IMG/VR virus record: IMGVR_UViG_3300020046_002068
Coordinates: 1,163 to 65,162 of that record
Source of the DNA: a virus
Taxonomy: Duplodnaviria > Caudoviricetes
Direction: 5' to 3' (one strand)
DNA length: 64,000 bases
In this document: piece after piece, positions 177 through 34,493 of the stretch
How the letters are laid out: the number at the start of each line of letters is the position of its first letter
How positions within the stretch are numbered: the first letter of the stretch is position 1
Notes under the pieces: model-generated
Database searches by the model: none
Told to the model about the DNA's origin: nothing
What the model saw: the letters and a program-made list of their open reading frames with translations, nothing else
Position numbers and translations under genes: made by a program

Positions 177-2120
177 ATGCCGACCCTCACTCACCCAGCA
201 CTCGTAGCCGAACACTGTGGCCTAGACACCTACACCACAAGGCTACGCACATTGACCGGGACCGAAATCCTCCCTCACCTAATCGCCCAGTTACCTGTAT
301 CAAGCTCAGTGGATTCAGCGCTTGTATACTTTTCCGCTCCCGTTGTGGCACCCGTGCTGAAATCGCTCGAACCCGCCAAACACGTGCTGCAAGAGCCGGA
401 CCCCGCGAACGCTCGCACGATCCTGTACATCGAGAAGCATGACACCGACACTATTAACTTCGTGCTCTACCCCGATGATTTGCAGTGCCTAGTACGATCC
501 TCGTCTGCATTCAAGAACATTACACTGACTGAGAAGCGTAACTGGCCCTCAGTTCAGTCGCTCGCCAGTACACCACTAGTGCCCATCACCTACGACACGA
601 AGATTAACTCCACTAAGGCTTCGCACAGTGCCTATAGGACTAGTCTTAACTATTCATTTCGACAGCGGGCACAACTGCACATAAGGAATGAACAGGAACG
701 TCTGGACGGGGCCGGGGCGGTCGAGTTGGCGCAGGAGCGTGAACGCTTCCGGTTTATGCCTATGGAACAGCGGGAGAACGCGTACCTGTACGACCTCATG
801 GTCCAAGCGAAGATGCCAGCCGTGCTGATGGACGACCTCGTGCCGGTTCCCAGTCAGGCGGAGATCAAGCGCTTCCAATTCCCGTTGCCCCCGGAGGATC
901 GGCCGCATCGACCCGGGCAGTCAGCCGCTAAAGTGGCGCGGATCGTCAACGTGCTGGCTGATAACTGCCGCATCACACCTAGCCAGCCATTGGGGAAAGT
1001 GGACCCCGCACAGTCAGGAGTGATGGTTCCTGATCGTCTGGTGCAGACCATGGCGCTGATGCCTGCTGGCGTGCTGTCCATTGAACTGGATAGCCAGAGC
1101 CCGGATTACACGGTGGACGACACGCGCATAAGTCAGGAACTTGCGGATGACATCCGGGTGTTCGGTGCCTGCTGGCGTGTGGTGCTGACGATTGGGAGGG
1201 ATACCCGCTATGTGTTGCCCGTTGCTACTACCTACCTAACACCTAACCCGATAGTGGTCCAGTTCAACTATAGGTGCCGCCCGTCGATGGATGCAGAGGG
1301 GAACCTAGACTTTCCCGTCCCTACCTCTATCAGCCTGAACACAACCTTGCTGAAGAAACAAGGGGTGATGCACGCAGAACGACTGGCCGAGGCGCTGGGC
1401 CAGTACCCCATGCGGCACATCAACAGGACCGCAGGGCCGAGTCCATGCGGGGTGCGCAAGGCTGCGGGGGAGCGAGAGTTTATCCGCGCATTGCAGACGG
1501 TGTTCGCAGTGCGGGTGGGTGGGCTGGCGCAACAGATCATTCTCCAGAACAAGCTGCCGAAAGTGATGCGGGAGATTGCGACGGGGGAGACATCCCTGCG
1601 CCAGCGCAATGAGATCAGTCAGGCTATGTACAGAGTAATGGCGCATTACTTCAGGGAGGGAGAGGACACGCACAGCAGGATCGTCAAGCGTTTGCCGCAA
1701 GCGGTGGCCGGGGCGTATGTGGAGTTCATTAGGGCACCGGGCTATGACATGGGATCGTCGGGGTTTGGCATCGCATACGATATGTTCGTGATACAGTTGA
1801 TGCGTAACGAGAACATCCGGGTTATGTATATCAACGGTGATCTTAGGCGCGCATTAGATAGCCCGGACCTGTACAAAAAGCAGCAAGAGAAAATGGAGCC
1901 GGGAATACGGGCTGCGCTGGAGCGGACAACGTCACTACTACTGCCTCATGCACCTGACCTCGAAGAAAACTATCTTGCGCCTAAGCTGGACGGCATCGAC
2001 CCGCTGGGCATCCCGGACAACGTGCGAGAGTCTAAGCTGGAGCAGCACCATCGGCGGGTGCGGGCACTGATCGGGCCGGTGCGGGGGCTGTTGGCGGAGA
2101 CAGAGGTGAGTGATGATTAA
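177..2120 (+). CDS. Hypothetical protein, 647 aa, no recognisable domain
   Basis: Long ORF with SD-like AAGGA upstream; its stop overlaps the ATG (2113) of the first microgene. Confidence 0.8.
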   Translation: MPTLTHPALVAEHCGLDTYTTRLRTLTGTEILPHLIAQLPVSSSVDSALVYFSAPVVAPVLKSLEPAKHVLQEPDPANARTILYIEKHDTDTINFVLYPDDLQCLVRSSSAFKNITLTEKRNWPSVQSLASTPLVPITYDTKINSTKASHSAYRTSLNYSFRQRAQLHIRNEQERLDGAGAVELAQERERFRFMPMEQRENAYLYDLMVQAKMPAVLMDDLVPVPSQAEIKRFQFPLPPEDRPHRPGQSAAKVARIVNVLADNCRITPSQPLGKVDPAQSGVMVPDRLVQTMALMPAGVLSIELDSQSPDYTVDDTRISQELADDIRVFGACWRVVLTIGRDTRYVLPVATTYLTPNPIVVQFNYRCRPSMDAEGNLDFPVPTSISLNTTLLKKQGVMHAERLAEALGQYPMRHINRTAGPSPCGVRKAAGEREFIRALQTVFAVRVGGLAQQIILQNKLPKVMREIATGETSLRQRNEISQAMYRVMAHYFREGEDTHSRIVKRLPQAVAGAYVEFIRAPGYDMGSSGFGIAYDMFVIQLMRNENIRVMYINGDLRRALDSPDLYKKQQEKMEPGIRAALERTTSLLLPHAPDLEENYLAPKLDGIDPLGIPDNVRESKLEQHHRRVRALIGPVRGLLAETEVSDD

Positions 2121-3022
2121 CGTCTACCGTTTCGGTGCGATATTGATGCTCATGGACGGCAAAATCTACAATGGCAAAGTCCTGATGTTCACTGGACAAC
2201 CTACCATGGACATGCATGAGCGGTACAAGTACGCGGAGACAAGGCAATGAACGTATATCCAAGGGGCGTGGTCCTCGAAAAGTGGGGTAACTACTGGAGG
2301 TACTCCATGTTTACTATGTACTTCAACCCTAGGTTCCCCGAGTCGTGCACTGTGCTGACTAGATACGTGAGGTTCTGATGAGTCTGCACCTTGACTACCT
2401 GATTAACTACACCCCGTTCTACATCATCGAGTTCACGCTCAATGCAAACGTGCCGAGGTTCGGTGCGAATCGGTACAAGTACGCGGGGGCAAGCGATGAT
2501 TGACGTGTATTCTAATGGTATAACGTTATGCAGGACGAACGAGCTTTCCTACGCTATCCCATGCATCAGATTGGTGACTCAGAAGGTGCCCGCACCGCTG
2601 GTTAGGTACGGGTTTCTCCCACATGGGGCGATGCTATGAGACTGTACGGACTAGGACTTGTGATCGATGGGATAGTAGTGCCGAACTACCCACACCCGTA
2701 CCCTGTTACCTACATAATGCTAAGTCAGAAGGATGGGGTGGAAGCACCGACGCGGTACGCATACCTACCAGCGGGATGGGATAAATGACTCTATACTCTT
2801 GCTTCCTCACGATGCCCGGTGTGCGGGTGTCCATGATGCAATTCACCGTTGACGTGGCTGACCTCGCGGTCAGCAGGTATCAGTTCTTACAATGGGGGGC
2901 CAAGCATGTACATGTATACCCACGGCGTGCAGTTTAGAGTGGCTCCGTACCAAGTTAAGGTAGTCATGATCATCAACTGCGATGGCTATTGGAGAGTCAC
3001 GGAGAAGTACGGTCTAGTATGA
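2113..3022 (+). other. RY-microgene block I (7 tandem ORFs, 38-50 aa)
   Basis: Hand translation: 2113-2250 (ERYKY), 2247-2378 (TRYVR), 2378-2503 (NRYKY), 2496-2639 (VRYGF), 2636-2788 (TRYAY), 2785-2937 (SRYQF), 2906-3022 (EKYGL); ATGA, TGATG or short start-stop overlaps. Confidence 0.8.
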
Positions 3023-3055
3023 ACTTCCACACTCAAGGAAGTATAGATAGGGGGG

Positions 3056-3084
3056 TTGACAAGGGGGCTTGACTAGGGTATAAT
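3056..3084 (+). promoter_or_regulatory. Perfect consensus sigma70 promoter
   Basis: TTGACA (3056-3061), 17-bp spacer, TATAAT (3079-3084); predicted TSS about 3091. Confidence 0.92.
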
Positions 3085-3090
3085 GTGTAC

Positions 3091-3615
3091 TGTGGCTGGA
3101 TATAGCATCCAGTCGCAGCAGCACCGGGCTAACATCCACCGTCGGATGTTAAGTAAGCAGTAAGGCCCCTCTTTCACAACCTGATCGCAAATGCCAGCGG
3201 CCAAGACAATCGCTGCTGGTGCAGGCAAGATGCTCACGTCCCGCGAACGAAACTGGCGGCACGGTAGGTAGTCCCCCACTCCACCCCGGTGCGAGACGGA
3301 CGCCCCAAAGTTACAACATGACCGTGCCAACGGCCCCTGTGGTGGGCCAATACCGGCGACAAGTAGTACGAACCTCTGAGATCCCCTGCGACCTAGGACG
3401 CACGACGTATGCATGTACTCCACATGCGTGCCGAACCTCGATGACCCTCCCATAGCGTGGATGCGAACCGAGGCAAGGCACAGCGTTAACAAAGTCAGGC
3501 ACCGACATCCCGAGCGAGGGCAGGGATAGTCCAGATAATGCCCGTGTTCCCCTAGGTCCTACATATAGAGTGATTTGGTCGTCACTCTCATGTGCATTAG
3601 TACGTACTAGTGTGC
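3091..3615 (+). ncRNA. Candidate long structured ncRNA or leader RNA
   Basis: ~600-bp gap in otherwise contiguous coding DNA, directly behind the promoter. Stems: 3091-3101/3107-3117, 3194-3200/3213-3219, 3258-3265/3321-3328, 3332-3336/3344-3348, 3390-3397/3551-3558, 3411-3416/3422-3427, 3436-3440/3469-3473, 3507-3511/3523-3527, 3567-3573/3582-3588. Confidence 0.55.
3129..3152. promoter_or_regulatory. 24-bp palindromic element, copy 1 (operator-like)
   Basis: CTAACATCC-ACCGTC-GGATGTTAA. Confidence 0.6.
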
Positions 3616-3641
3616 ATGTATCTTGACGACTGGAGAAAGAC

Positions 3642-5066
3642 ATGAAGATCATGATCCCCGGCGAATTCAGTTACTTCGGCGTGCGGATAGTGTACGGTCA
3701 GTATCTCTGCGCTATGTACAACTGCGCGGCTGACAGCCACAAGTGGGTGCGGCGCTACCACATAGGAGTGTAACGTGGAGTTCTACGAAGGATCGTACTT
3801 CACAGTGGTCTTGGGTGTAGGCCCCGGCCCTAGACGGTACCTCGCTGCCACGCATCGGTTCGGCGACACGTCTGATCGGCGGATGTTCTTTCAACGCTAC
3901 AACCTAGCAGGGTGGTGACATGTGGTTCAAGATGGAGTATTACCTAGTGCTGGTCGGCCCGGATGAGTTCGAAGTCATGGCGCTGTCCGTCAACTGCATG
4001 ACCGACGACCGAGAGGCGTTCTTCAACCGCTACAAACTGTGGAGGTAACGTGCTGATCAAAGGCACCGTGTTCTTCGGGGTCAACCCAGACACCCGAGGA
4101 TCGGATCATTCGATACAAACGATCTGGATAATCAAGCCCATGAACCGGGGTACTTTTTCAGGTAAAACGACGGCGTTTTTCTGGAGGTACCACATCAACC
4201 TGTATGACGTGCTGAGATAGGAGTCAACACCGGATGACCATAGCAGATAGCCCCCGCCAATACTTCGGGCTGTACTTCAACAGTCGCTGGCAATGCTTTG
4301 CTGTCATCACAGATAATGTGGTGGATCAGAGAATGTGGGCCAAGCGATACAATCTTTCAACCTAACATCCGACGGTGGAGGTTAGCCCCATGGAACTAGA
4401 CACACTGTGGATGCGAGTTCAGATACATGACGAAACCCACTGGCCGTGCATGATCCGCTCCACTCGGCTCGACAATTGGCTGCGGTGGAGGTACGCGCTA
4501 TGAACCTGAGCATAGGATTGCTGGCGCTTGGGTACCACCCTGACGGCTACACCCTCATGACCTGTACCAGTTTCTCGGACAAGTGGTTAGCTAGGAGGTA
4601 CTTCCCATGAACCTAAGAGGTACCATCGTCTACTCTCACGAGGGGTTCAACCAGCACTCGTGGAACAGGTTCCCGCAGTACACCATCATCCGGATGCATT
4701 GGTATAAGAACCTAATGGCCCGAGACAAGACGCAGTTCCTTGCCTTCGTCCGGGAGAGGTACTTCAAATGATAATCACTGGGCCGTACTACGTAATACTT
4801 GTACTACTACGCAAAGGAGAGCCAGCAAAACACATCAACCTAATGCACAAGAGTATCATCGACGAGCGGATCATACTTCGCTACGGATTCCCGTCCGACC
4901 CCGGAGCGTACTAATCATGCGGATACTCGGACCGTGGTACTTGGGTGTGTGGATGCCATACACAGCGATGTACGTTACACTGGACCCAAACCACAAGAAC
5001 GAACAGTTCTTTCATTTACGGTACAACATTTCAACAGATCGCAAGATCTACTTTGGAGATTCATGA
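3642..5066 (+). other. RY-microgene block II (10 ORFs, 36-56 aa)
   Basis: 3642-3773 WVRRYH, 3775-3918 FFQRYN, 3920-4048 FFNRYK, 4050-4220 FFWRYH, 4234-4365 WAKRYN, 4390-4503 WLRWRYA, 4500-4610 WLARRYF, 4607-4771 FVRERYF, 4768-4914 IILRYG, 4917-5066 FFHLRYN; SD before most starts. Confidence 0.85.
4362..4385. promoter_or_regulatory. 24-bp palindromic element, copy 2
   Basis: CTAACATCC-GACGGT-GGAGGTTAG; contains the GGAGG SD of microgene 4390. Confidence 0.6.
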
Positions 5067-5353
5067 TGCTGGCAGTTAATATTTATGGTGCGACAGCGTT
5101 GATCGGCACCATCCACCTCGACGTGCGCCCTGCCCATGCCCTGAAGGCGGCGCGGTACTTCAAAGATAACGGCTTCCAAGTGGAGGTCGATGCGGGCATG
5201 TTGTGCGTCCGTCAACCCCGGCGGGTGGATGGCAAGTGTGCTGGCATGGCCCTGCGCAAGCGGTTCAAGTCGGCGCACAAGTACTTCGACGGCACCATTT
5301 CCGCCAAGGGTCTGGCCGAGTTCATGGGCAGGGTGGCCAAGGCAGGGCTGTGA
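5063..5353 (+). CDS. Hypothetical protein, 96 aa
   Basis: ATGA-coupled to the previous microgene, GGAG SD, GC3-rich codons. Confidence 0.75.
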   Translation: MMLAVNIYGATALIGTIHLDVRPAHALKAARYFKDNGFQVEVDAGMLCVRQPRRVDGKCAGMALRKRFKSAHKYFDGTISAKGLAEFMGRVAKAGL

Positions 5354-6044
5354 TGTACTTCAACGGACCGGTCTGTCTTGGGTTCTCCATCAACAACTAC
5401 CGCACAACGTGGATGTTGGTAGCACCGATAGAGACGCGGGCGTTCCTTCGTCGATACGCCATCTTCGAGGGGTACGGGTGGCCTAGGGAGGGGGAGGCGT
5501 GGTGACACTTGGCATGGGGTCAGGGCGGGTGGTGTGGCGGGTGCATCCGCATATCGTGGTGTTCATCAAGTTCTTCGGCTCGCCCTACTATTTGCAGCGC
5601 AGTGCCGCCATTAACTTCTTCGTGCGGAGGTATGAGCTATGAAGCTAAGTACACGGTGGGTCAACTTGACTTGGCCACACCCGAAAGTGACATGGTATAC
5701 GGTGGATATGTTTCACAAGCTGGATCTGGGGCGTCAAGCTGGTCTGCTACCGTACATTCATGCGAGGTACATGCCATGAACCTGAGCGTCAACAAGATCA
5801 ACTTGTACGCTATAGGCTTTGAGTGTCGGGTGTTTCCTTATAATGGGTACACCCCGACAACGGCGAGGTGGTTCAACGCGAGGTACTTCAAATGAGACTG
5901 TCACTTCCATCCGGGGCATGGATATCGATAGATGGTGATAAACAGATCAATCTGCGGCTCGGCCCTATCGACTCGAATGCAAACATAGATTTCAGGAGAT
6001 TCATTCATGGGAGATACAAGTACATCCATAGAGACTTCGACTAA
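5353..6044 (+). other. RY-microgene block III (5 ORFs, 39-50 aa)
   Basis: 5353-5505 FLRRYA, ~5502-5642 FFVRRYE, 5639-5779 YIHARYM, 5776-5895 WFNARYF, 5892-6044 FIHGRYK. Confidence 0.85.
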
Positions 6045-6222
6045 CACACCCACTCCACACTACATCACGCAGTGTGGTACACTAGACGGCAACACATACC
6101 AGACGAAAGGAACTGCTTACTTCGACGAGACTCGTTTTACGTTGTTCATCGGGGAGCAACCCCAACTTATTTCAATCCGAGGGTACTCAAACCTAACCCT
6201 CTCAGACTCAAGGATCAATACC

Positions 6223-6669
6223 ATGGCCGGCATTCGCTTCGAACACCACCCCTTCCGTGTCTACGGCACCGACGCCAATGACTCCAACACCTACCAGCGC
6301 CCGTTCATGCAGGCGATGGAGGATTCGCAGGATGCGGACACGACGGTGGTCATCACCGTGCTGCATGGGGGTGTCATGATGGACATCCTCGACCGCAAGA
6401 TCCAGAAGTTCGACAACCCCGAGGAAGTGGTCAAGGAAACGTACAACTTCGGACCGGCCACCGACCGTGACTCGTTCGAGAAGGCGTTCAACATGTTCAA
6501 GATGCACCGGGCCAGCAACCCCTGTGTCTTGTTCAACTTCACTGGTGTCGAGATCAAGGACCTCACTTCGCCCGTGCTCAAGTGGGATGGCATCAACAAT
6601 GCTGACCAGATCCCCGAGTCCGAGCGGGTGGTGGTCCCCTTCACCAAGCCTGCCTACCCCGACAAGTGA
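6223..6669 (+). CDS. Hypothetical protein, 148 aa
   Basis: AAGGA SD before ATG 6223; strongly GC3-biased codons from this point. Confidence 0.8.
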   Translation: MAGIRFEHHPFRVYGTDANDSNTYQRPFMQAMEDSQDADTTVVITVLHGGVMMDILDRKIQKFDNPEEVVKETYNFGPATDRDSFEKAFNMFKMHRASNPCVLFNFTGVEIKDLTSPVLKWDGINNADQIPESERVVVPFTKPAYPDK

Positions 6670-6678
6670 TGTAACAAC

Positions 6679-6706
6679 GGCTAACCTCCGACGGTGGAGG
6701 TTAGCC
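6679..6706. promoter_or_regulatory. Palindromic element, copy 3 (28 bp with flanks)
   Basis: GGCTAACCTCC-GACGGT-GGAGGTTAGCC, perfect 11-bp arms, intergenic. Confidence 0.65.
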
Positions 6707-6717
6707 AGGAGAAGGGG

Positions 6718-7289
6718 ATGTACTTCGATAAGATGGATGGGTCAGTCGACGCAGGGGGTGATACGGCACCGAACTGGATATTCATGTTCACACGATCCAG
6801 ACTAGACTTCTTCTACCGGCACCGCTATGTACTTCGATGAAGATGACATGTCGTTCTGCGCTGAGTACGTCGGCAATTCGTCCGACCGGGGGGATGACTA
6901 TGCCGGATGGAAATCCTGGAAGTTTGCGCTTGCGTGCCACGGGGTCAACCGAGCCGAGGTGTGGTTGGTGAAGCGGTACCTGCCATGATCTTCGACATCA
7001 GAGACGTATCAATAAAGGGGATGTACTCGGACGATCCTATGGCGTGGCTGTTCGTAGTGGGTAGCTACGCTCCCGGGTGGCGCAAGATCGAAGACACCTT
7101 ATCCAAGAGGTATGGATTCCAATGAACTTCGTCGTCTTTATCTTTAGGGGGAATCTCTATCAGACAATAACTACTGGACTTGGCATGAACCCTGCGTACC
7201 AATTCAGGTTTACGCAGAAGTACTTCTTTAAAGATGAGTACCTGATGGACAGGTACCACTTGTCACGTAGCAAACTACTTACAATCTGA
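6718..7289 (+). other. RY-microgene block IV (4 ORFs, 40-55 aa)
   Basis: 6718-6840 FYRHRYV, 6827-6988 WLVKRYL, 6985-7125 TLSKRYG, 7122-7289 YLMDRYH; the first two both start ATGTACTTCGAT (MYFD). Confidence 0.85.
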
Positions 7290-7300
7290 AAGGTAATACC

Positions 7301-8464
7301 ATGGCCAAGAAAGATGTCGCTCCCGTGTCCACCATTTCCCTGCGTGAAGCCAAGCAACTGATCCTCGCGGTCGGGCATCAGGTTGCCATCATGTTGGGTG
7401 GTGAAATGGGGATTGGCAAAACCGCCCTGTTGGGGTGGATCAACGAGGATCTGCCGAAGGCGGACCGGTACATCAACATGCGGGTGGACGCTGCCAATCT
7501 GTCGGTGGGTGATCTGGCCCTGCCGTCCTTCATCGACGTGGAGACCGAGCCGGGGGTGTTCGAGAAGCTGTCGACCTGGGCGGTCAACAAGCACCTGGGT
7601 CTGCATCAGAAGCGCCCGATCCACATGTTCGTGGATGAGTACACCAAGGCTGGGCAGGAGGTGAAGAACGCCCTGCTCCCGCTGATTTACGACCGTGAGT
7701 TGTTTGGCCTCAAGTTGCCGCAGGGTAGCTTGGTCACGCTGACCGGCAACCTGATCGACAACGGGTTGGGTGATGCGATGAAGGGGCACGAGCGCAACCG
7801 TGTGTGCTACGTTGTTGTGCGCAAGCCGAGCGGTGATGAGTGGATCGACGACTACGCCATCCACAACGGCATCCACCCCGCCATCCCGCGCTGGGTCAAG
7901 GACACCCCGCAGGCGTTCGCTTCGTACCTCGACGGCGAGACGGTGTCGGATGGCAAGGGCAATGGCAACCCCTACATCTACCATCCTGATCGCTCCGACA
8001 TGGAAGCGGTGGTCACCCCCCGTTCGTTGACTGCTGCCAGCCACGTGCTGCACGCTGCCGACCGGGCGCACTTCGCCCCCATGCTGACCCGCACGGCACT
8101 GGCTGGACTGATCGGCCGGTCTGCCGCTGCCGACCTGATGACGAACTACGAACTGGCGCTCAAGCTGCCCGACCGTGCCGCCATCATCGCCGACCCCAAG
8201 CGGGCACCCCTGCCCGGTAGCACGGTGGCGTGCAGCATGATCACGTTCTCCCTGGCGACGACGGGCACCGACAAGACCATCAGCCCCATCATCGACTACA
8301 TGAAGCGGCTCGACGGTGAGTGGCAGGCGGTGTTCATCAAGATGTTCACGGCCCGCAAGCAGGTGGGTGCCGACGCCAAGGGTGAGCCGATCAACGGCAA
8401 GCGTGCTCTGAGCAACACCAAGGACGGCATGGCATGGGCGCTGGACAACGGCCACATGTTGTAA
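7301..8464 (+). CDS. AAA+ ATPase (MoxR/AAA_5-like)
   Basis: Walker A GEMGIGKT, Walker B MFVDE, TGN sensor and R-finger-like RNR; partner vWA gene nearby. Confidence 0.85.
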   Translation: MAKKDVAPVSTISLREAKQLILAVGHQVAIMLGGEMGIGKTALLGWINEDLPKADRYINMRVDAANLSVGDLALPSFIDVETEPGVFEKLSTWAVNKHLGLHQKRPIHMFVDEYTKAGQEVKNALLPLIYDRELFGLKLPQGSLVTLTGNLIDNGLGDAMKGHERNRVCYVVVRKPSGDEWIDDYAIHNGIHPAIPRWVKDTPQAFASYLDGETVSDGKGNGNPYIYHPDRSDMEAVVTPRSLTAASHVLHAADRAHFAPMLTRTALAGLIGRSAAADLMTNYELALKLPDRAAIIADPKRAPLPGSTVACSMITFSLATTGTDKTISPIIDYMKRLDGEWQAVFIKMFTARKQVGADAKGEPINGKRALSNTKDGMAWALDNGHML

Positions 8465-8968
8465 TCCGGCAGTACCGGTACGGGGTGCATGTGGGAAGCA
8501 GAGTTGTGACCTTCATGCAACCCCCGCTGTCTGCGAAGTACGACTACAGGCATGTCATGGATCTGTTCGAACGGAGGTACGGACTATGAGGGGGCCTAAC
8601 GTGATGACACTCCACGTCTGGGGGACGTGGGTAGATTCCGAACGGTACGTGCACGTTGTACCCCGAGCCGCTGCTACCGTCCGGTGGTACTTGACTGCGC
8701 GGTACAACCACATACAGGTGAACCTTGGAACTTGATGGATGGGAAGCATACTGGTATGCTGGAAGTAAGTGGCCTAAGTGTGTGGCTGTACTCAAGTTCC
8801 GGCACGCTGGGTTCCTGCTGTATAAACGCTATGGAGTTCGTGAGGACCCTACATATGCGGCTTGACAACTGGGGCGCAATCGTATCGCCAATGTGTGTTG
8901 TCGATGCACTTCAATACGTCGGGCACAACTTGTTTCGTGATAGATATAAACTTGCGCGTCACTTCTAA
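8434..8968 (+). other. RY-microgene block V (4 ORFs)
   Basis: ~8434-8589 LFERRYG (start uncertain), 8586-8735 YLTARYN, 8725-8865 LLYKRYG (TTG start), 8855-8968 LFRDRYK. Confidence 0.75.
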
Positions 8969-8982
8969 CATCCGCCTTTCGC

Positions 8983-9006
8983 CTAACATCCGACGTCGGA
9001 TGTTAG
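8983..9006. promoter_or_regulatory. 24-bp palindromic element, copy 4 (perfect palindrome)
   Basis: CTAACATCCGACGTCGGATGTTAG; extra half-site CTAACATCCG at 8965 and hairpin GATGCCAAC-ATCCT-GTTGGCATC just downstream. Confidence 0.65.
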
Positions 9007-9062
9007 TCAATGATGCCAACATCCTGTTGGCATCGCTTGGATGTTAACTTCAGGAGTATCAA

Positions 9063-10334
9063 ATGAAAGCTGAACAGGCTATCCAAAAAGCCAACGTGTC
9101 GTTCATGTCGCACCCTGCCTTCCGTGGCGTGGCGGGTGTGGTGTTGTTCGGCAAGTCGGAGATCGTTGACGACCCCAAGGTCATGCCCACTGCGGCAACG
9201 GACGGGGTCAACAAGTACTACGGTCGTGGGTTCATCGACGCCGAGGATCACGCTGCACGTACCATGGTGGTCGGACACGAGACGATGCATCAACTCCTTC
9301 GTCATACCTTCGTCTACAAGGAACTGTTCAAGAAGGACCCGCAGTGCGCCAACATCGCGGCTGACTTCGTGGTCAACCTCATGCTGTACGACGGGCACAT
9401 GTCGCTCGACGCGGCACAGCAGGGCATCACTCCCATGCTGCCGCCCCTGACGGTGCAACCCCTGATGGACGAGCGGCTGCGTGGCTGGTCCACTGATCGC
9501 ATCTTCCGCCTGATCCAAGACCTCGCCGACAAGAAGGCGCAGATCCCCGGTGGTACCACGGTCAAGGAGTGGGGTGGCCGTCCGGTCAAGACGCTCGACG
9601 ACATCAAGTTCTCCCGTGGCAAGAAGGGTGGCAGTGGTGGTGTCGAGGGTGCCGACTCGATGGACGATCACATGCCCGACAGCGGCGAGGAGATGACCGA
9701 GGAGCAGGCCAAGGAACTGGAGTCGATCATCCGCACCGGCAAGATGATGGCGGGTAAGGACGCCAGCGGTGCGCTGCGTCATATCAACATGGGTGAATCC
9801 AAGATCTCGTGGGAGGAGTTGCTGGAGAACTGGGTGCAGCGCCTGTTCCATGGTGGGCACGATGAGACGTGGACCCGACCCAATCGCCGCTTCGCTGCGC
9901 ACAACATCTATCTCCCGTCCGGTCGCACCGAGGTGCTGCCGCCCCTGCTGCTGGCCATCGACACGTCGGGCTCGATCAGCAACGAGGTGCTGGCCACGGT
10001 CAAGTCACATATCCAGAAGATGGTCGAGCGCTACGCCATCCAGCAGGTGGACGTGCTGTACTGGGATAGCAGGGTAGCTGGGTTCGAACAGTACCCGCGC
10101 TCCGAGGTCAAGGGTCTGGTCGATTCGACCAAGCCCAAGGGGGGTGGCGGCACTGATCCTTGCTGCATCCGGCCCTATGTGTTGGGCAACGCACTGAAGT
10201 ACTTCGCCGCTATCGTGTTTACTGATGGGTGCTTCGGCGACGAGGGCAACTGGGACTTCGTGAACCACCGTGTCATCTGGGTGGTCGATGGTCCGGAGCG
10301 TGTGTTCAACGTCGGTCGGTCGGTGCAGGTGTGA
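9063..10334 (+). CDS. Putative metallopeptidase plus vWA domain protein (DUF2201-like)
   Basis: HETMH (HExxH), acidic linker, MIDAS DTSGS, GGGT and VFTDG motifs. Confidence 0.85.
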   Translation: MKAEQAIQKANVSFMSHPAFRGVAGVVLFGKSEIVDDPKVMPTAATDGVNKYYGRGFIDAEDHAARTMVVGHETMHQLLRHTFVYKELFKKDPQCANIAADFVVNLMLYDGHMSLDAAQQGITPMLPPLTVQPLMDERLRGWSTDRIFRLIQDLADKKAQIPGGTTVKEWGGRPVKTLDDIKFSRGKKGGSGGVEGADSMDDHMPDSGEEMTEEQAKELESIIRTGKMMAGKDASGALRHINMGESKISWEELLENWVQRLFHGGHDETWTRPNRRFAAHNIYLPSGRTEVLPPLLLAIDTSGSISNEVLATVKSHIQKMVERYAIQQVDVLYWDSRVAGFEQYPRSEVKGLVDSTKPKGGGGTDPCCIRPYVLGNALKYFAAIVFTDGCFGDEGNWDFVNHRVIWVVDGPERVFNVGRSVQV

Positions 10335-10335
10335 G

Positions 10336-10888
10336 GTGCGGTTGATCGGTCTGCACGTGTGGCCGGACCAATTCCCTGGGGGCAAGCTGCTGACGGGGCA
10401 CCCCCAAGGGATCACCATCAGCGCATATCAGTGGATGGTTAAGCGGTATGAACTGGAGTACAGCGCATGAGAGTTAGCATCGTGTATCTAGACATCCTGT
10501 TCGACCACAGCAAGTACCGCAGTCGGATCGAGGGGCTGCGCGGTCCGATCAGTGCTGTCCACGGCACCATGATGTTCAGCCGCTACTATTCTGTACCGGA
10601 GGAGTGACATGCTACAATCGCTACAACATCAGGAGGGAGAATGTATCTTGACCTGTCAGATCTGACAGTAAACACGGGTCGCCGTTGGGTGTTTAGCATT
10701 GAAGGTACGGAGACCATGAACAAGTTCGCGCGGGTCCACCGCTACAACATTAGGAGAGCAGGATTATACTAGGTAAGTTAAGCTGTACACTTTACTTTGC
10801 CGATAGAGATGCTATCTGTCTCATCTTTACCCCCGCCTACATCGTCGATAATCTGTTCATCAAGCGCTACGGCGCACTTAAGGATTGA
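10336..10888 (+). other. RY-microgene block VI (3 intact, 2 degenerate units)
   Basis: 10336-10470 WMVKRYE, 10467-10607 MMFSRYY, 10604-10651 15-aa tail-only NRYNI, 10641-10772 RVHRYNI, ~10763-10888 LFIKRYG without a canonical start. Confidence 0.7.
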
Positions 10889-10890
10889 TC

Positions 10891-11763: not shown

Positions 11764-13149
11764 GCGTACCCACCATGTTCATGGCACCGGGGGCTACGAT
11801 GATGTTAAGTCGGCTGTTCCTATCAGTAGACCTCCGGGATGCTGAGAGTTCCAATGGCATCAACGGACTCTATAGCATCCACCCCAACGAGAGCGCACTG
11901 GTGCAGAGGTATGGTTATGGATCTTGAATGGGATGCGCTGGTAGTTAGCTGGAGTATGGGAGAGTGGGCAACCTGCGGATTGCGGAGGATCCTGTTCAAC
12001 GAGTACAAGTTCGTGGAGAGGTATGGTTATGTACTTGTATAGGAGCACAATCAAGGTGAAGTGGCGGCGCACCTATCTGCGGTGGGCTCCTGAACTAGAG
12101 GGGGAGACGATGCGGATGTTCTTGCTAGAAAGGTACGGCTATGTGCTGGTATAACGTAACGTTCCGATTCAGGATGAGCACCGGGAAGTACTGGGCTATC
12201 CACGGTACGCCCAACGTCCTGGCAGCACTGAGAATGTCGGAGAGGTACTTCAATGTACCTTGAACCTGAACACCTAGTGGTGCGCCCCAGTGCCGACAGC
12301 ATTTCCCGGGCGCAAGAAGTGTGGGGGCTACAGCGCGTGGTCATCCGGGAGTACCGTCTGGTGTGGAGGTACTGCCTTGTATCTTGACCCCTCTTTCCTA
12401 GTCGCTCGTGGTAGGAATGCACATAAAAGCCCCCGGTCACACGAAGCATGGGGGCTGTACTACTACACACAAACACTGGAAGACTGGCTAACGCAGAGGT
12501 ATGGCTATGCAACTTGACGGTAGGATTCTGTACGTCTACTTGGGGAGTACTATCCACAACCCGAACCAGCGGCACAACTACATCTACGCCATAGACAGTA
12601 AGGCCCAACGGTGTGATTTCTTCATATTCCGGAGGTACTGTTATGTGGCTTAGCTCTAGGATTCTGCATGCTAGGATCGGCAGCGTGCACTACGAGACGG
12701 TGCTGGGATTCATGACAACAGTATCCGGCGAGACGGAATTCATCACTAAGAGGTACGGCTATGGAGCTTGATGCTGGTAACTTCTTTGTGGTGGACATCC
12801 GTGTCCCTTCCGTGACATCTGCGGATCAGGTATGGGGGTTCCTGTACGTAGTCAAGGGGGAGCGATTATTCGTGGATAGGTACGGCTATGCATCTTAACC
12901 CGGGTATACTGTACGTAGGGTTCGGAGCCATTAACACCTGCCACCTGTTTGCTTTCACCCCTGCCGGTAGTGGGTCCGTGGTAGGGGAGGTTAGTTTTCT
13001 GCGGAGATATAGGTATGTTCATCAGCAGTAGAGGATGGGTCTGCACGTCATGGAAAGCGGGGGAAGGGGTATGGATAACAGCAGTAGAAGATACCTTCGG
13101 GGTGTCTTACGCTGAACAATACTTGATTAGGCGTTATACATTTACTTAA
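11760..13149 (+). other. RY-microgene block VII (11 ORFs, 40-55 aa)
   Basis: 11760-11927, 11917-12042, 12029-12154, 12141-12263, 12253-12387, 12377-12517, 12507-12653, 12643-12771, 12761-12898, 12888-13031, 13015-13149; tails include LVQRYGY, FVERYGY, LLERYGY, LTQRYGY, IFRRYCY, ITKRYGY, FVDRYGY, LIRRYTF. Confidence 0.88.
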
Positions 13150-13158
13150 GGAGCAGCA

Positions 13159-13839
13159 ATGGAACTCAGTTCGTGCAGTCTGACCGTCAGCCACGGAGCT
13201 GGCACGATGTTCACCCGGGGGCTTGCACAGCGCAACATCTTCCACTACCGGACGATGGAGCGGTACAACCTGTTTAACCTCCCCATCCATGGGCGAGTGC
13301 ACAAACCGTTCGAGATCGCCAAGCAGTTCACCATGACCCATGCACCGGGGGTGGTGTGCGCTGCGATTGCAGGGGAAGAACTCTGGGTCACACCATCGAG
13401 GATGGTTTTCATCGCCACGCGTGAGCGGCAGGAGATCGCATCCATTACCTACGACCGGGACAAGAAGGCGTGGATCGGCAGGGCCAAGCACATGCCAGCC
13501 AGCCCCAAGTTCAAGCACGCCGCCCCCTACGTTCAGCGCAAGGATCTGGTCGCCCTGCTGTGGGAACTCAAGCCCTACCTGCGCGGCATGTCCGACAAGG
13601 AATGGGCGGTGCATTGCACCTACCAACGGATCATTGCCTGGGGCTGGTCGTACTCAAGGCCGTCGGTTGCGCCGGTTGATGCCTGCCAGTTCGCCGCTGC
13701 CATGACGGAGCGCGAAGCACACACCGAGCAGTTGATCGTGGCCATGGCGAAGGTCATGAAGGATGTGCACGAAGCTGCCGCTGCCAGTGCCACCATCGAG
13801 ATGTGGAAAGACTTCGACCGTCGGATGCATGGGGGGTAG
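13159..13839 (+). CDS. Hypothetical protein, 226 aa
   Basis: AAGGAG SD, long ORF with phage-like codon usage. Confidence 0.8.
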   Translation: MELSSCSLTVSHGAGTMFTRGLAQRNIFHYRTMERYNLFNLPIHGRVHKPFEIAKQFTMTHAPGVVCAAIAGEELWVTPSRMVFIATRERQEIASITYDRDKKAWIGRAKHMPASPKFKHAAPYVQRKDLVALLWELKPYLRGMSDKEWAVHCTYQRIIAWGWSYSRPSVAPVDACQFAAAMTEREAHTEQLIVAMAKVMKDVHEAAAASATIEMWKDFDRRMHGG

Positions 13840-13840
13840 C

Positions 13841-13996
13841 ATGATCCTATGTAATCCCGAACTCGAAGATGTATTTTGGGTGGGGTTAGCGAACGACCCC
13901 GACACCACGTTCCACGTCACCAATCTCAACACCATCTGTAGTACCAATCGGGACTATCAGATCGACATGTTTTTCATTTACCGTTACCTCAAGTAG
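13841..13996 (+). CDS. Single RY microprotein, 51 aa (FFIYRYLK)
   Basis: ATG 13841 directly after the previous stop; carries the motif. Confidence 0.75.
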   Translation: MILCNPELEDVFWVGLANDPDTTFHVTNLNTICSTNRDYQIDMFFIYRYLK

Positions 13997-14017
13997 TACC
14001 AACCTAGGAGTATTACC

Positions 14018-14425
14018 ATGGCTACACTGACCCCGTCGTACCTCCTGAATACTATCCGCGAACTGGAGCGGGAGAACGCGACGTTGAAGCTGCAACTGGA
14101 AATGGAACGTGAGAAGAAGACCCCCCGCATCCAGCGTGCCCCCGAACAACTGCCGCTGATTCCGCACACCCCCGTCCGGACCACCGCCCAGATGGACCTT
14201 CCCCTTCGTCGCAAAGAGGGAGCAAAATATATCGAAGGGGTGGCGTACGCCGTCAACACCGGAGCGTCTAAGGGCAAGCGTGGTAGGGATTTCAAGGTTA
14301 CCCCCGAGCCCATGCGCGTGCTGCCCAACGACAAGATGGCGGAGGAGTTCATCCATGAGCGCCGGTATGGTGCTGGTGCCATCGTGCGTATCGGTGCGTG
14401 CATCATCGAGGATGAGCGGGGATGA
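14018..14425 (+). CDS. Hypothetical protein, 135 aa, N-terminal coiled coil
   Basis: AGGAG SD; heptad-like IRELERENATLKLQLE. Confidence 0.8.
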   Translation: MATLTPSYLLNTIRELERENATLKLQLEMEREKKTPRIQRAPEQLPLIPHTPVRTTAQMDLPLRRKEGAKYIEGVAYAVNTGASKGKRGRDFKVTPEPMRVLPNDKMAEEFIHERRYGAGAIVRIGACIIEDERG

Positions 14426-14824
14426 AGTATTACATTCTCAACAATGCGGTGAGCATCACCAAGTACGGGGTGGGAATGTACCCGTGGACTAGACGTGTGG
14501 TGGATGACTGGCTCACCCTGCGTTACCAACTGGTGGTGGCATGAGCGCACTTAGGGGAGTATCCGCCGTACGGTGGAGTGGCCGCACGGTCTACATCAGT
14601 GAATCATGGGGTGGGCTTCACGACCGTGTGCTTATGTCCCAGCGATACAATATCGTTACCGATCACGCACCATGGTGATATCAACCGCTTGGATGGAAGT
14701 ATCGTGGATGATCGGAACTTATCGTGAGTACGCGCAAGCGGGAGATTGGGACCAACTGGGGGATACGTACTTGTGCCGCAGGTACGAACTACGAATCGCT
14801 GACTTTCCTAGGAGTGGCATGTGA
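14422..14824 (+). other. RY-microgene block VIII (3 ORFs)
   Basis: 14422-14544 WLTLRYQ, 14541-14678 LMSQRYN, 14672-14824 YLCRRYE. Confidence 0.8.
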
Positions 14825-15099
14825 ATAACATCAATCCGTTTACGCCAAACCCTGTTGCCTTCATCGTGCACAACAGACTGGCCGACAGCTTGGAGAAAAG
14901 AACGCACATCATGTGGTCGCATCCTACCAAGGACGACCGGTACCGATCACACCGTAAGCCCGACGTGCTGTGTCGTGGCACGGCAGGGGAGCGATGCGGG
15001 GTGAAGCTGACCGCGACCGACCGCAAACGCAAGGGGTACGCGTATCTGTGCAAGGTGTGTTACAAGGCGCAGTACTGGGCCAAGTACGATAGGGGCTGA
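14821..15099 (+). CDS. Small Cys-containing protein (possible Zn finger), 92 aa
   Basis: AGGAG SD, GTGA overlap; C..C spacing and CKVC. Confidence 0.65.
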   Translation: MNNINPFTPNPVAFIVHNRLADSLEKRTHIMWSHPTKDDRYRSHRKPDVLCRGTAGERCGVKLTATDRKRKGYAYLCKVCYKAQYWAKYDRG

Positions 15100-15100
15100 C

Positions 15101-15628
15101 ATGCACGTAGTCCCACACTTCTGGATAGAGGCTTCTGGTATGTGGTCGCTGGCTGGACATAATACTCCGGCGATCCGGGCGTTCATGTGGGTGAGGTACG
15201 AACTATGAAACTAATACAGTATTTTCGGGTGCGGATATCGTGGAGAGTAGGAGTGGCTACATGGGTAATTGTCCCAACTGCCATGGGAGAAGCTAGAATG
15301 TATCTTCGTGGTCGGTATAAACACTGGGGTCCAGACCTACTATGATCTACCAACCCTACATGAAGCTGTTCACTATTCCCACTAACAAAAAGCGTAGTGA
15401 ATTCATCTGCGCAGCGGCTCACCGCATCGGCATCCGAGATTATCTGGAGCGTAGGTACAGGTTGTTCTCATGGTAATCGCTCACTACCTACAACTCTACA
15501 TTCGGAAGCCGGGCATCCCGCTACAGTTCTTAATGTGGGTTCATCCCCAAGTTGCGTGCAGGGAGTACTTGGATAGGAGGTACATGCGTGGCAAAAAGGC
15601 TAGCAACAAACCCTCTCCCTTTCGATGA
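15101..15628 (+). other. RY-microgene block IX (4 ORFs)
   Basis: 15101-15208 FMWVRYE, 15205-15345 YLRGRYK, 15342-15476 YLERRYR, 15470-15628 YLDRRYM. Confidence 0.82.
15402..15489 (+). repeat. 88-bp inverted repeat, left copy
   Basis: Ungapped 72/88 identity to the reverse complement of 16836-16923; the last 37 bp are identical. Confidence 0.9.
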
Positions 15629-15785
15629 GGAACGATGCGCCGATGCCCTTCAGCGCTGGTGCCCTGAGCGGGACAACTGCCGACGCTGGGTGGACCGGTA
15701 CCCTGCCGGGGACCACACGCCTTGGGTTCCCTTCACCATTGACCGCACCTCTGCCGGGTGCCAACACATTATAAGGATCAAGTGA
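15588..15785 (+). CDS. Small Cys-containing hypothetical protein, 65 aa
   Basis: GGAGG SD, GTG start, C-x7-C-x4-C-RR pattern. Confidence 0.7.
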   Translation: MAKRLATNPLPFDEERCADALQRWCPERDNCRRWVDRYPAGDHTPWVPFTIDRTSAGCQHIIRIK

Positions 15786-15922
15786 TGTGCGAGATGTCTG
15801 CTTTAACCGTGCTCGCCTGGGGCGTAGCAGTTATGATCGGTGGTCCGGTCATCTTGATGCTGTTGGCCGGGGTTGTTCTCGGCGCAATTGGTATATACAC
15901 AGTCGTGACTGAGAAGAGGTAA
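15785..15922 (+). CDS. Small membrane peptide, 45 aa
   Basis: MCEMSALTVLAWGVAVMIGGPVILMLLAGVVLGAIGIYTVVTEKR; TGATG overlap. Confidence 0.65.
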   Translation: MCEMSALTVLAWGVAVMIGGPVILMLLAGVVLGAIGIYTVVTEKR

Positions 15923-15975
15923 TGGGATGATCGCAGAGAATTGATGTTCACTACTTACTTAACCAAGGAACCATC

Positions 15976-16125
15976 ATGAAAAAACTTATCATCGCCGTTG
16001 TGCTGGCCGCTGCCGCTGCTTCCGCTTACGCTGCCTGTCGTACCTATACCATCATGCAAGGTGGCCGCATGGTGATGTGCACCGAGTGCTGCTTCGGCGG
16101 GCACTGCACTATCAACTGCAACTGA
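15976..16125 (+). CDS. Secreted six-Cys peptide, 49 aa
   Basis: AAGGA SD; MKKLIIAVVLAAAAASAYA signal peptide followed by ACRTYTIMQGGRMVMCTECCFGGHCTINCN. Confidence 0.85.
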   Translation: MKKLIIAVVLAAAAASAYAACRTYTIMQGGRMVMCTECCFGGHCTINCN

Positions 16126-16132
16126 CCTGACA

Positions 16133-16585
16133 ATGAAGCCAGTCATCTGCCCATACTGCAAAGGTCAGGCGGAGTTGGTGGTGGGTAGGGACATGTACCC
16201 TACCCACTCACGGTTGTGGACCAAGCACCTCTACCGCTGTACCCCGTGCGATGCGCACGTGGGGTGCCACCCCAACACCACGACCCCGCTGGGGACGCTG
16301 GCCAACCGCCCGCTGCGCGCAGCCCGCATGGCTGCACACACTGCATTCGACAAGCTATGGCAAGGGGGAGACATGCCCCGCTGGGCTGCGTACAAGTGGC
16401 TGCGAGGGATGATGAACATGCCCCGGGACGAGTGCCATATCGGACAGTTCGACGAGACGCAGTGCGCCCAAGCTATCGCCCATGTGCAGGATTACCTGCG
16501 ACGAAAGGGGAAGATCCATCGCGCTCAGACTTCGAACACCACGGTGGCAGTGCCGCGTCCGACTATCGCATCAGCCGGGAAGTAG
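16133..16585 (+). CDS. DUF3268-like zinc-finger protein
   Basis: CPYC...YRCTPCDAHVGCH...AH.AFD.LW...AY.WL...CHIG.FD pattern. Confidence 0.8.
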   Translation: MKPVICPYCKGQAELVVGRDMYPTHSRLWTKHLYRCTPCDAHVGCHPNTTTPLGTLANRPLRAARMAAHTAFDKLWQGGDMPRWAAYKWLRGMMNMPRDECHIGQFDETQCAQAIAHVQDYLRRKGKIHRAQTSNTTVAVPRPTIASAGK

Positions 16586-16716
16586 GTGGTCTTGGGATCG
16601 GGAAGTCGAACAATGCCGCCGACTTCAATGATGAGCCCCCGGCTCCTGTCGTAGAAGCACAGGGGGTCATCGAGGTCTGACTGGATCAGAATCCGCAGCG
16701 CGTCTCTTACTTTCAT
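16525..16716 (-). CDS. Hypothetical protein, 63 aa (minus-strand islet)
   Basis: Open ORF downstream of the minus-strand MVIAHYL ORF; weak SD. Confidence 0.45.
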   Translation of the reverse strand: MKVRDALRILIQSDLDDPLCFYDRSRGLIIEVGGIVRLPDPKTTYFPADAIVGRGTATVVFEV

Positions 16717-16855
16717 GACTGCCTGCCCAGATCAGACCGACCACTATGATTGCTACAAAACCAAGGGGGAGTAGTACATGGGCGACGACCCACTGTGCCA
16801 AGTACCCCAAGGCTTTGTAGAACCATAGATGGTCGAGGTAGTGAGCGATTACCAT
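16667..16855 (-). CDS. Membrane peptide sharing its MVIAHYL start with microgene 15470
   Basis: Starts inside the inverted repeat; hydrophobic segment VLLPLGFVAIIVVGLIWA. Confidence 0.55.
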   Translation of the reverse strand: MVIAHYLDHLWFYKALGYLAQWVVAHVLLPLGFVAIIVVGLIWAGSHESKRRAADSDPVRPR

Positions 16856-16923
16856 GAGAACAACCTGTACCTAGTTTCCAGATAGTCCCGTGCGGCAATG
16901 AAATTAGACGCCGCGCAGATGAA
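16836..16923 (-). repeat. 88-bp inverted repeat, right copy
   Basis: Reverse complement of 15402-15489 (72/88; 37 bp perfect). Confidence 0.9.
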
Positions 16924-17175
16924 GACGCTGTGGCCCATAGCAGTGGGGCGAGTGAGCGTGTCGAGCCGGGTCATGAGCCGGTTCAGCAAAACTAAAGTAT
17001 TCTGCTGTTGCAACTCGATCCTTGCGATTGCGCGACTGAGTTCATCCAAACGGTCTTTGGTTGTAGTCGCGTTGTCGCGCTCCCAGTGTGGGCGGGGTGG
17101 AAGCGGTTGCATTCGGAAATGGTACAACGCTCCAATGACAGGAGCAAGACTTTTCAACAGGAGTATCTGTGGCAA
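16849..17175 (-). CDS. Coiled-coil protein fused to an RY tail (RDYLETRYRLFSW)
   Basis: C-terminus homologous to microgene 15342-15476; start uncertain. Confidence 0.55.
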   Translation of the reverse strand: MPQILLLKSLAPVIGALYHFRMQPLPPRPHWERDNATTTKDRLDELSRAIARIELQQQNTLVLLNRLMTRLDTLTRPTAMGHSVFICAASNFIAARDYLETRYRLFSW

Positions 17176-17411
17176 CTAAACCAGTCCTCACCCTGCATTC
17201 CCGTGGATGGCACAACTCTCTCGTGATGACCGCCAAGCAAGGGGCGCGTATTGCTAAGGCTAAGGGTGGTCAGGCAGAATCGAAACTATCTGACTACAAG
17301 CCCGGGACATCGGGGCAACAGGAGTTCTACAGCACGTACAAGCAACTCGCTGAGCGAGAGTATGAAAAGGAACTACGTGCTATCCAAGAGGGTAACGACT
17401 ACGGGGTGTAG
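17169..17411 (+). CDS. Hypothetical protein, 80 aa
   Basis: AGGAG SD before GTG. Confidence 0.7.
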   Translation: MATKPVLTLHSRGWHNSLVMTAKQGARIAKAKGGQAESKLSDYKPGTSGQQEFYSTYKQLAEREYEKELRAIQEGNDYGV

Positions 17412-17413
17412 TG

Positions 17414-17848
17414 ATGCACATCAAATTTCAGAGGATGCTCAACGAGTTCGCAATTATCATTCTGCCTCCTATTCCACGTAAGAGCGTGGACACTTACTAC
17501 CTGATCGACACGGCGGACGCTGACAGGTGGTTGTATAGTCGGTACATAGGGGTGTAGTGATATGAAGCTGTTTGATAATGGCTTAGACGACGGGCCTGGA
17601 TTCAGTGTCCTTGTTCAAGACTTACATCATGACTACTACATGGACGGTAGTTACTACATTATCAGAGCCATAAATGTGTTCTTGTTAGCGAGGTACTCCT
17701 AATGAACGTAGATATACATAAAGGGGGCGCGTTAGGTAGTACCTACTTCCACTTCATGGTCCAGCTTAATACCCGCGACGAGCCATTAATCCTAGTCGAG
17801 ATCGGTGAGTGCGACCAATACTTAGCTGAACGTTACGGAGTGTGGTGA
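17414..17848 (+). other. RY-microgene block X (3 ORFs)
   Basis: 17414-17557 WLYSRYI, 17562-17702 FLLARYS, 17702-17848 YLAERYG. Confidence 0.82.
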
Positions 17849-34192: not shown

Positions 34193-34493
34193 GTCCGACG
34201 AACCGGAGACGATGCGCCTGGAACCCGACGGGCGCAAAATCCGGATGGTCTGTAACGGTTACACCTATGAGTTCAACCCGGATGCGATGGACCCGGGGGT
34301 GACCTTCTTCATCCCTACCATCCACTACAACGATCTTGCTATGGCCCTGGATGAGTACATCATCTACAGGGAAGAGAAGTCTACTATCGAGTTGATAGCC
34401 ACAGCATGCCTAACCCCGAAAGGCTACGGGGTTAGGGTCATCGTTATTCCAGCGTCCGCACGAGAATCCTTGCCTCCGAGGCGCGGGTATTGA
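34164..34493 (+). CDS. Hypothetical protein, ~109 aa
   Basis: Overlaps the previous ORF; convergent with the giant gene. Confidence 0.6.
   Translation: MTRRRPRRDESDEPETMRLEPDGRKIRMVCNGYTYEFNPDAMDPGVTFFIPTIHYNDLAMALDEYIIYREEKSTIELIATACLTPKGYGVRVIVIPASARESLPPRRGY

Follow-up and report, generated by a model that had tools for sequence, protein, structure and literature searches.

Why would a small, uncultivated tailed phage of 65 kb devote about 7 kb, about a ninth of its genome, to one family of miniproteins? The question is raised by the early region of IMG/VR virus record IMGVR_UViG_3300020046_002068 (Duplodnaviria; Caudoviricetes), which is 65,162 bp long and rated complete. The window, that is, the whole stretch of DNA analysed here, is 64,000 nucleotides (nt) long (positions 1,163 to 65,162 of the record) and covers nearly all of it; coordinates below are those of the window. 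Between 2113 and 17848, the + strand carries chains of microgenes, each encoding a variable N-terminal head followed by a C-terminal tail with the dipeptide Arg-Tyr (RY). The 53 microgenes of the curated set, called RY units here, cover 7,051 of these 15,736 bases (45%; ~11% of the genome), and larger genes cover 5,814. An earlier note, made from the sequence alone, had proposed that these are real coding microgenes with a variable head and a constant tail, and two kinds of evidence, the enrichment of the tail motif and the comparison of variants from other samples, now agree with it.

The enrichment of RY tails is pronounced. There are 170 stop-to-stop frames of at least 30 codons on the + strand between 2100 and 17860, and 56 of them carry RY within their last 16 residues. 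The corresponding counts are 10 of 168 on the minus strand, 8 of 121 at 18-34 kb and 7 of 234 in the late genes, and 200 shuffles gave a mean of 8.1 such frames and a maximum of 14. RY is also the commonest tail dipeptide (56), the runner-up being RR (30), and shuffling the residues within the 53 units leaves tail RY at a mean of 5.8 and a maximum of 15. The starts of the units were chosen by Shine-Dalgarno (SD) site and chaining. The curated units are 35-56 amino acids (aa) long, with a mean of 45, and 3-4 borderline units can be added to them; this fits the earlier count of about 57 in ten blocks, the curated units falling into 11. Chaining by short overlaps is seen as described, with junction spacings of -4 (ATGA) in 18 cases, -11 in nine and +1 in five. 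The blocks are laid out as follows, with gene calls from L011, one of the variant contigs introduced below, where available.

2113-2250, 2247-2378, 2378-2503, 2496-2639, 2636-2788, 2785-2937, + strand: block 1, six RY units, the first three also called as genes in L011.
About 2906 (start) to 3022 (end), + strand: borderline K-Y unit after block 1.
3642-3773, 3775-3918, 3920-4048, 4050-4220, 4234-4365, 4390-4503, 4500-4610, 4607-4771, 4768-4914, 4917-5066, + strand: block 2, ten RY units, all except 3775-3918 called as genes in L011 by the source pipeline.
5066-5353, + strand: 95-aa gene whose N-terminal part resembles an RY unit (A-L-K-A-A-R-Y-F-K motif near residue 30) and continues into a C-terminal extension of ~60 aa; called as a gene in L011.
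5353-5505, 5502-5642, 5639-5779, 5776-5895, 5892-6044, + strand: block 3, five RY units.
6718-6840, 6848-6988 (start perhaps 6827), 6985-7125, 7122-7289, + strand: block 4, four RY units.
8434-8589, 8586-8735, 8725-8865, 8855-8968, + strand: block 5, four RY units between the ATPase and peptidase-VWA genes.
10342-10772, + strand: block 6, RY units 10467-10607 and 10641-10772, with borderline unit 10342-10470 (TTG start).
11775-11927, 11917-12042, 12029-12154, 12141-12263, 12253-12387, 12377-12517, 12507-12653, 12643-12771, 12761-12898, 12888-13031, 13015-13149, + strand: block 7, eleven RY units.
13841-13996, + strand: block 8, one RY unit, with three alleles that all keep RY.
14422-14544, 14541-14678, 14693-14824, + strand: block 9, three RY units.
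15101-15208, 15205-15345, 15342-15476, 15470-15628, + strand: block 10, four RY units.
17414-17557, 17562-17702, 17702-17848, + strand: block 11, three RY units.

Anchored on RY, the units share the consensus [DRE]-x-[FYWL]-[LFMI]-x-x-R-Y-x-[LYIF]. The pair of hydrophobic residues that the earlier note saw ahead of RY is present and can now be placed at -4 (hydrophobic in 72% of units) and -3 (89%), and a further hydrophobic position lies at +3 (73%). Different hydrophobic residues replace one another freely at -4 and -3. Among the 53 curated units, neither Phe nor Trp ever stands in for the Tyr, nor Lys for the Arg, two borderline open reading frames (ORFs) with K-Y falling outside this set; M1, R and Y are the only residues invariant across units. 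RY stands 1-18 residues from the C-terminus. The products are rich in aromatic residues (17%) and on the whole not hydrophobic, with a grand average of hydropathy (GRAVY) of -0.15, a median isoelectric point of 8.9 and 29 Cys among 2403 residues (1.2%). Similar strings of residues occur in some of the larger genes at 13159-13839, 14018-14425 and 14821-15099: a 226-aa protein has F-H-Y-R-T-M-E-R-Y-N-L-F near its N-terminus, a 135-aa protein has F-I-H-E-R-R-Y-G 18 residues from its end and a Cys-rich protein of 92 aa has the C-terminus Y-W-A-K-Y-D-R-G. These three may be fusions or relatives of RY units.

The role of the nucleotide sequence in keeping RY cannot be overlooked, since the bases that encode it can also serve the ribosome. 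As had been reported, the motif uses every one of the six Arg codons and the two Tyr codons (in the 53 units AGG 27, CGC 8, CGG 8, CGT 4, CGA 3 and AGA 3; TAC 41 and TAT 12). AGG thus accounts for 27 of the 53 Arg codons, compared to 9% in the long genes, and its use depends on position: it is found in 19 of the 21 units whose Arg codon lies 9-16 nt (in practice 10-11) before the next start and in 8 of 32 elsewhere (Fisher p = 3e-6). AGG-TAY thus doubles as the SD site of the next gene where the geometry allows. For example, the junctions of block 7 are mostly 11-nt overlaps in which AGG TAY GGN TAT G encodes R-Y-G-Y and supplies both the SD site and the next ATG. The other 26 units use CGN or AGA, 24 of them at least 17 nt from the next start. 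Because these 26 keep RY with non-AGG Arg codons where an SD role is impossible, RY is selected in the peptide, and with the AGGTA cases set aside the 26 that remain still lie above every shuffle. Judged by codon choice, then, selection is acting on the RY peptide, beyond the AGGTA ribosome-binding site. Two further cases speak for the same claim of the earlier note. Units 11917 and 12029 both end in ERYGYVLV, with five synonymous differences in eight codons and different stop codons, and one allele exchanges CGT TAT for AGG TAC amid changed flanks (unit 13015, whose tail is I-R-R-Y-T-F-T in the window and I-D-R-Y-N-I-T in L011). The array shows neatly how the same bases can spell both a peptide motif and a ribosome-binding site, the codon used depending on position.

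The units also behave as genes in other respects. A coding model trained on the long genes ranks the annotated frame best of six in 37 of 53 units, compared to 91 of 94 equal-sized pieces of long genes; GC content at third codon positions is 0.64 in the units and 0.67 in the long genes; and most units were called as genes independently by the source pipelines. The variants consist of 12 contigs of the same phage from other samples that overlap the array and were found via the ATPase and unit 12761. They are mostly 94-99.8% identical to the window, with patches down to 87%. In the annotated frames there are 72 synonymous differences (584 sites) and 82 non-synonymous differences (2062 sites), giving a ratio of non-synonymous to synonymous polymorphism per site (pN/pS) of 0.33, or 0.28 for the heads alone. 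RY is kept in 198 of 198 allelic copies; 11 copies flagged by the script differ merely in stop position or alignment truncation and have RY intact.

Individual alleles make the pattern visible. The L011 allele of unit 15101-15208 has a head only ~31% identical, of nearly equal length and with frame-preserving indels, and the divergence ends exactly at the R-Y-E-L codons. Unit 6848-6988 has changed head residues in L012 and L013 and keeps W-L-V-K-R-Y-L-P, and the L012 allele of unit 8586-8735 keeps RY through an in-frame 3-nt insertion and many third-position changes. Whole units come and go as well. The variants hold four more RY units that are missing from the window, all four with RY; L014 and L015 have one extra RY unit directly after 17848; unit 14422-14544 is absent from five of six variants; and L022 is without exactly one unit (12145-12239). 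In block 6, an out-of-frame remnant tail, R-Y-N-I-R-R-E-N-V-S, lies at 10608-10651, and its parent unit is intact in L014 and L016. By the variant evidence, the units are coding genes under selection, and their turnover, which keeps to the unit junctions, takes place between genomes that otherwise mostly share 95-99% identity; on this comparison, RY units are real genes under purifying selection.

Another kind of rearrangement is seen in block 10. An 88-nt inverted repeat, 82% complementary, joins 15402-15489 and 16836-16923, so that the minus strand holds a copy of unit 15342's tail and unit 15470's start. Near 16836-16923, a 764-nt insert is present in variants L011, L014, L015 and L017, where it adds three genes on the minus strand (169, 67 and 63 aa); the window has 16842-16945 instead. 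The site looks like a rearrangement scar involving a microgene.

The heads, taken as the residues up to six before RY, had been described as unrelated. They are highly variable and almost unalignable, but not wholly unrelated: one pair reaches E = 1.5e-5, a leave-one-out hidden Markov model (HMM) of the heads beats shuffles weakly (p = 5e-4), residue 3 is L, F, I or V in 43 of 53 units and a weak β-strand pattern recurs. Neighbouring heads are also more alike than random pairs (mean Smith-Waterman score 19.2 compared to 16.5 +/- 0.5, p < 2e-4), which points to tandem duplication followed by fast divergence as a fitting history. The ββα fold guessed earlier is predicted in both members that were modelled with AlphaFold2. 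In unit 12761-12895, strands are placed at residues 8-13 and 22-27 and a helix at 35-41 that ends in R-Y, with a predicted local distance difference test score (pLDDT) of 75; unit 3920-4045 has the same order of elements, with the helix at 28-38 and a pLDDT of 67. A ββα-Me (HNH-type) finger was considered and rejected, as the conserved His, Asn and metal ligands of the hairpin and helix are absent and only M1, R and Y are invariant. Foldseek against PDB and BFVD, and VIA-align against 48,161 chains, gave nothing above noise (best Z 2.0), and ESM Atlas look-ups of two units gave no usable match.

How widely is the family distributed? Microgenes are often left uncalled and are hence invisible to protein databases. 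Scans of all 53 members against Pfam-A and PHROG gave no significant match (best E-values 0.05-0.09, reached by one member each). Among 1.84 billion protein representatives, a profile search returned one member of the array itself and repetitive junk only, a 45-aa profile having little power in a database of this size, and a word-indexed search of 5.8 billion proteins returned own members only. At the DNA level, near-identity searches with the array and with 20-44 kb found no match among cultured phages, and tblastn of one unit against 50,697 phage genomes (E <= 10) gave only chance matches in tailspikes. A scan of IMG/VR with the ATPase as single protein found no match. A pattern of three AGGTAY-N4-ATG junctions at unit spacing gave three IMG/VR matches, all without an RY array, and more than 120 matches in metagenomes that proved to be ordinary tandem DNA repeats without diverse microgenes; both were set aside. 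In agreement with the earlier note, no described family was found in Pfam, PHROGs, the protein sets or the structure searches.

The nearest phages tell a similar story. By the ATPase these are L008 and L009 (38-42% identity), and together with Rhizobium phage RHph_TM3_14A they keep the order ATPase, peptidase-VWA, polymerase; their small early genes are unrelated and their RY counts are at background. No shared tail dipeptide, RY-like or other, is found in the small early genes of L001, L008 and L009. The interval between the ATPase and VWA genes holds zero or one gene in the relatives and four RY units here. The MoxR-type ATPase and the peptidase-VWA protein are unlikely to be an array-specific partner pair, since three relatives carry both genes without an RY array. 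The RY family thus looks confined to this phage species complex, as far as sequence can tell.

The phage itself can be placed by its family-A DNA polymerase, which is 36% identical to that of RHph_TM3_14A and 34% to those of Pseudomonas phages KPP25 and phiR18. The + strand carries the early and replication genes (AAA ATPase, DUF2201 peptidase-VWA, polymerase and helicase), with the array upstream of the replication genes. The features below lie within or next to the array.

3056-3084, + strand: sigma-70 promoter TTGACA-17-TATAAT, 12/12 consensus.
7301-8464, + strand: AAA ATPase (phrog_1297), a conserved core early gene outside the RY family and the anchor for finding relatives.
9063-10334, + strand: DUF2201_N metallopeptidase-like and DUF2201 VWA-like protein, a conserved core gene outside the RY family.
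3130-3151 (hairpin 3126-3154), 4363-4384, 6682-6703 and 8984-9005, and genome 596-620 (564 nt before the window): stem-loop copies, plus a partial copy where the record begins.

The promoter at 3056-3084 is likely an early one and would feed the array that starts at 3642. It is followed, within 3056-3640, by an ORF-poor stretch of ~550 nt that folds better than all 100 shuffles (z = -2.7) and has no Rfam match; this stretch before block 2 could be a structured leader or a non-coding RNA. The stem-loop is a palindrome of 22-26 nt, (C)TAAC(A/C)TCC-N6-GGA(T/G)GTTA(G), in five copies, with one stem position that covaries (A:T, C:G). All copies lie between early-region genes or blocks, the first of them after a canonical terminator, and only one of the five adjoins a consensus promoter; in L011 a 65-nt indel removes the 8984 copy. 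Possible roles of the stem-loops are as operators, as processing sites or as hairpin promoters used by a virion RNA polymerase.

Several other genes stand out. The early region is headed by a 647-aa ORFan (177-2120) that has no match in Pfam, PHROG, phage tblastn or metagenome proteins; a search for relatives that might lead to other arrays found none. Two small genes outside the family encode a predicted membrane peptide of 54 aa (15758-15922) and a peptide of 49 aa whose N-terminus is signal-like and whose end is rich in Cys (15976-16125). In a protein of 2406 aa (34444-41664, minus strand), residues 98-506 match the N4-type virion RNA polymerase family (phrog_2206) in its N-terminal part, and the C-terminal third of the protein matches families without assigned function; family scans detected no polymerase domain in it. 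Scans of the window for tRNAs and against Rfam gave no matches.

What, then, is the array for? We see about an even chance that it is a lineage-specific family, amplified in tandem, whose 53 or more early microproteins are translated separately and directed at the host. The units would be read from one or a few polycistronic messages with tight translational coupling through ATGA or 11-nt overlaps, and R-Y codons 10-11 nt before the next start, written AGG-TAY, double as the SD site of the next unit. The peptides are under purifying selection, R-Y is invariant across paralogues and alleles, and the gain, loss and swapping of units follow the unit junctions. Each product is predicted to be a small β-hairpin with a C-terminal amphipathic helix ending in R-Y, and the proteins would be produced jointly at an early stage of infection and target the host. 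The mini-fold would be built by the interchangeable hydrophobic residues at -4, -3 and +3, the strictly invariant Arg-Tyr would make one common contact with a shared ligand or partner, and the fast-evolving hairpin heads would give each copy its own specificity, as if in an arms race against the host's factors or defences. That the hydrophobic positions vary within their class while the identities of R and Y never change speaks weakly for a specific contact of R-Y that the units have in common, beyond a role in packing the fold.

One could take this further and consider the array a library of variable heads on a constant handle, in which R-Y docks onto one machine of the host or phage, or onto a ligand, and the hairpin heads of ~30 residues are fast-evolving specificities renewed by unit duplication, loss and head swapping. 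This would amount to combinatorial binders for host takeover or counter-defence, and we put it forward tentatively, at less than an even chance. Several points weigh against the reading as a family of host-directed microproteins with a common contact. The units were ascertained by carrying RY, though nearly every small ORF of the tiling has it; the pairs behind the pN/pS values are not independent; both AlphaFold2 models were built on one paralogue alignment and are of moderate confidence; the nearest phages do without the array, so it is accessory; and the invariant R-Y could be purely structural.

If it is, the family would be the same but R-Y and the helix would merely form its structural core, with each member acting on its own unrelated target and no partner in common. 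The motif sits in a predicted helix that is expected to pack on the hairpin, the hydrophobic residues of the motif have helical spacing and the heads are under purifying selection of their own, all of which suit this explanation. At such divergence, however, structural positions usually keep a class of residue and not its identity, whereas Y never becomes F or W and R never becomes K across the 53 curated units, the 198 alleles and the four variant-only units; a purely structural role is somewhat less likely than the docking library. The array could also be selfish or regulatory filler, spread by unequal crossing-over, whose main role is to couple ribosomes along the early message and whose peptides matter little. 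The junction (SD site, stop/start overlap and M-x-L) is indeed the only part conserved in DNA (repeat families D1-D3), units are gained and lost in register and relatives live without the array. Filler is nevertheless improbable in view of the purifying selection on the heads, the 24 units that keep RY with non-SD codons at non-SD distances, and the ORF length and tail kept in alleles through heavy divergence.

The layout of dozens of tandem genes with a constant recognition element and a hypervariable remainder also recalls precursors of RiPPs (peptides synthesised by the ribosome and modified after translation). The array would then be a mirror image of the prochlorosins, with a constant C-terminal "follower" recognised by a single enzyme that processes or modifies the peptides, and with the variable head as product, and neighbouring ORFans without assigned function (the 647-aa, 220-aa and 226-aa proteins) leave room for such an enzyme. 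This is quite improbable, since Pfam and PHROG detect no modifying-enzyme family among the larger neighbours, Cys is scarce, the heads are predicted as folded β-hairpins packed on the tail and the distance from RY to the C-terminus varies so widely. That the units are not genes at all, being chance ORFs or a nucleotide-level repeat read as peptide, might be suspected from their very short length, many falling below the cut-offs of gene callers. This is very improbable indeed, as it is contradicted by the RY enrichment, codon use, the frame test, pN/pS, the retention of RY in alleles and the positional split of AGG. A family of early microproteins directed at the host thus remains the preferred reading.

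Such a family matters because phage early regions are the main reservoir of uncharacterised host-manipulating proteins, and annotation routinely misses genes of fewer than 50 codons. In the array, nature provides over 55 versions, diverse in sequence, of one scaffold of ~45 residues. Should the invariant R-Y be a common handle, the array would offer a model, open to direct test, of the way in which a phage varies its binders to host targets.

Among known systems, the host-takeover module of phage SPO1 has 26 small early genes (PMC6873191). Both it and the array are tight groups of small early genes in a lytic phage, whose products would presumably appear jointly as infection begins and target the host. 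The position of the array is also like that of an SPO1-type module, on the + strand ahead of the replication genes and with a 12/12 sigma-70 promoter, from which early timing is inferred. To our knowledge, neither paralogy nor a shared motif links the SPO1 module genes, whereas at least 53 units of ~45 aa here share one fold pattern and an invariant R-Y. A second likeness is to the hyperplastic regions of T4-type phages with their PeSL (promoter/stem-loop) cassettes, ORFan-rich and plastic early regions in which small genes at short repeats have been inserted, deleted or replaced between close relatives (PMC2839356). The early region here is plastic and ORFan-rich too, and has a repeated stem-loop (five copies) and a strong sigma-70 promoter. 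It differs in that most indels are bounded by the coding junctions of units and not by promoter/stem-loop cassettes, and in that the shuffled genes belong to one family. The prochlorosin precursor libraries likewise consist of dozens of genes with one constant recognition part and one hypervariable part (PMC10783134). Theirs is an N-terminal constant leader served by a known single enzyme, ProcM, whereas the constant part here is C-terminal, Cys is rare and no enzyme was found. Prochlorosin cores are rich in Cys, Ser and Thr. The array is thus similar to host-takeover clusters in role, to T4-type hyperplastic regions in dynamics, and to lineage-specific expansions and prochlorosins in layout, and a member of none of them. 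It is a lineage-specific expansion of small early phage proteins, made distinctive by its scale, its population evidence and its invariant dipeptide.

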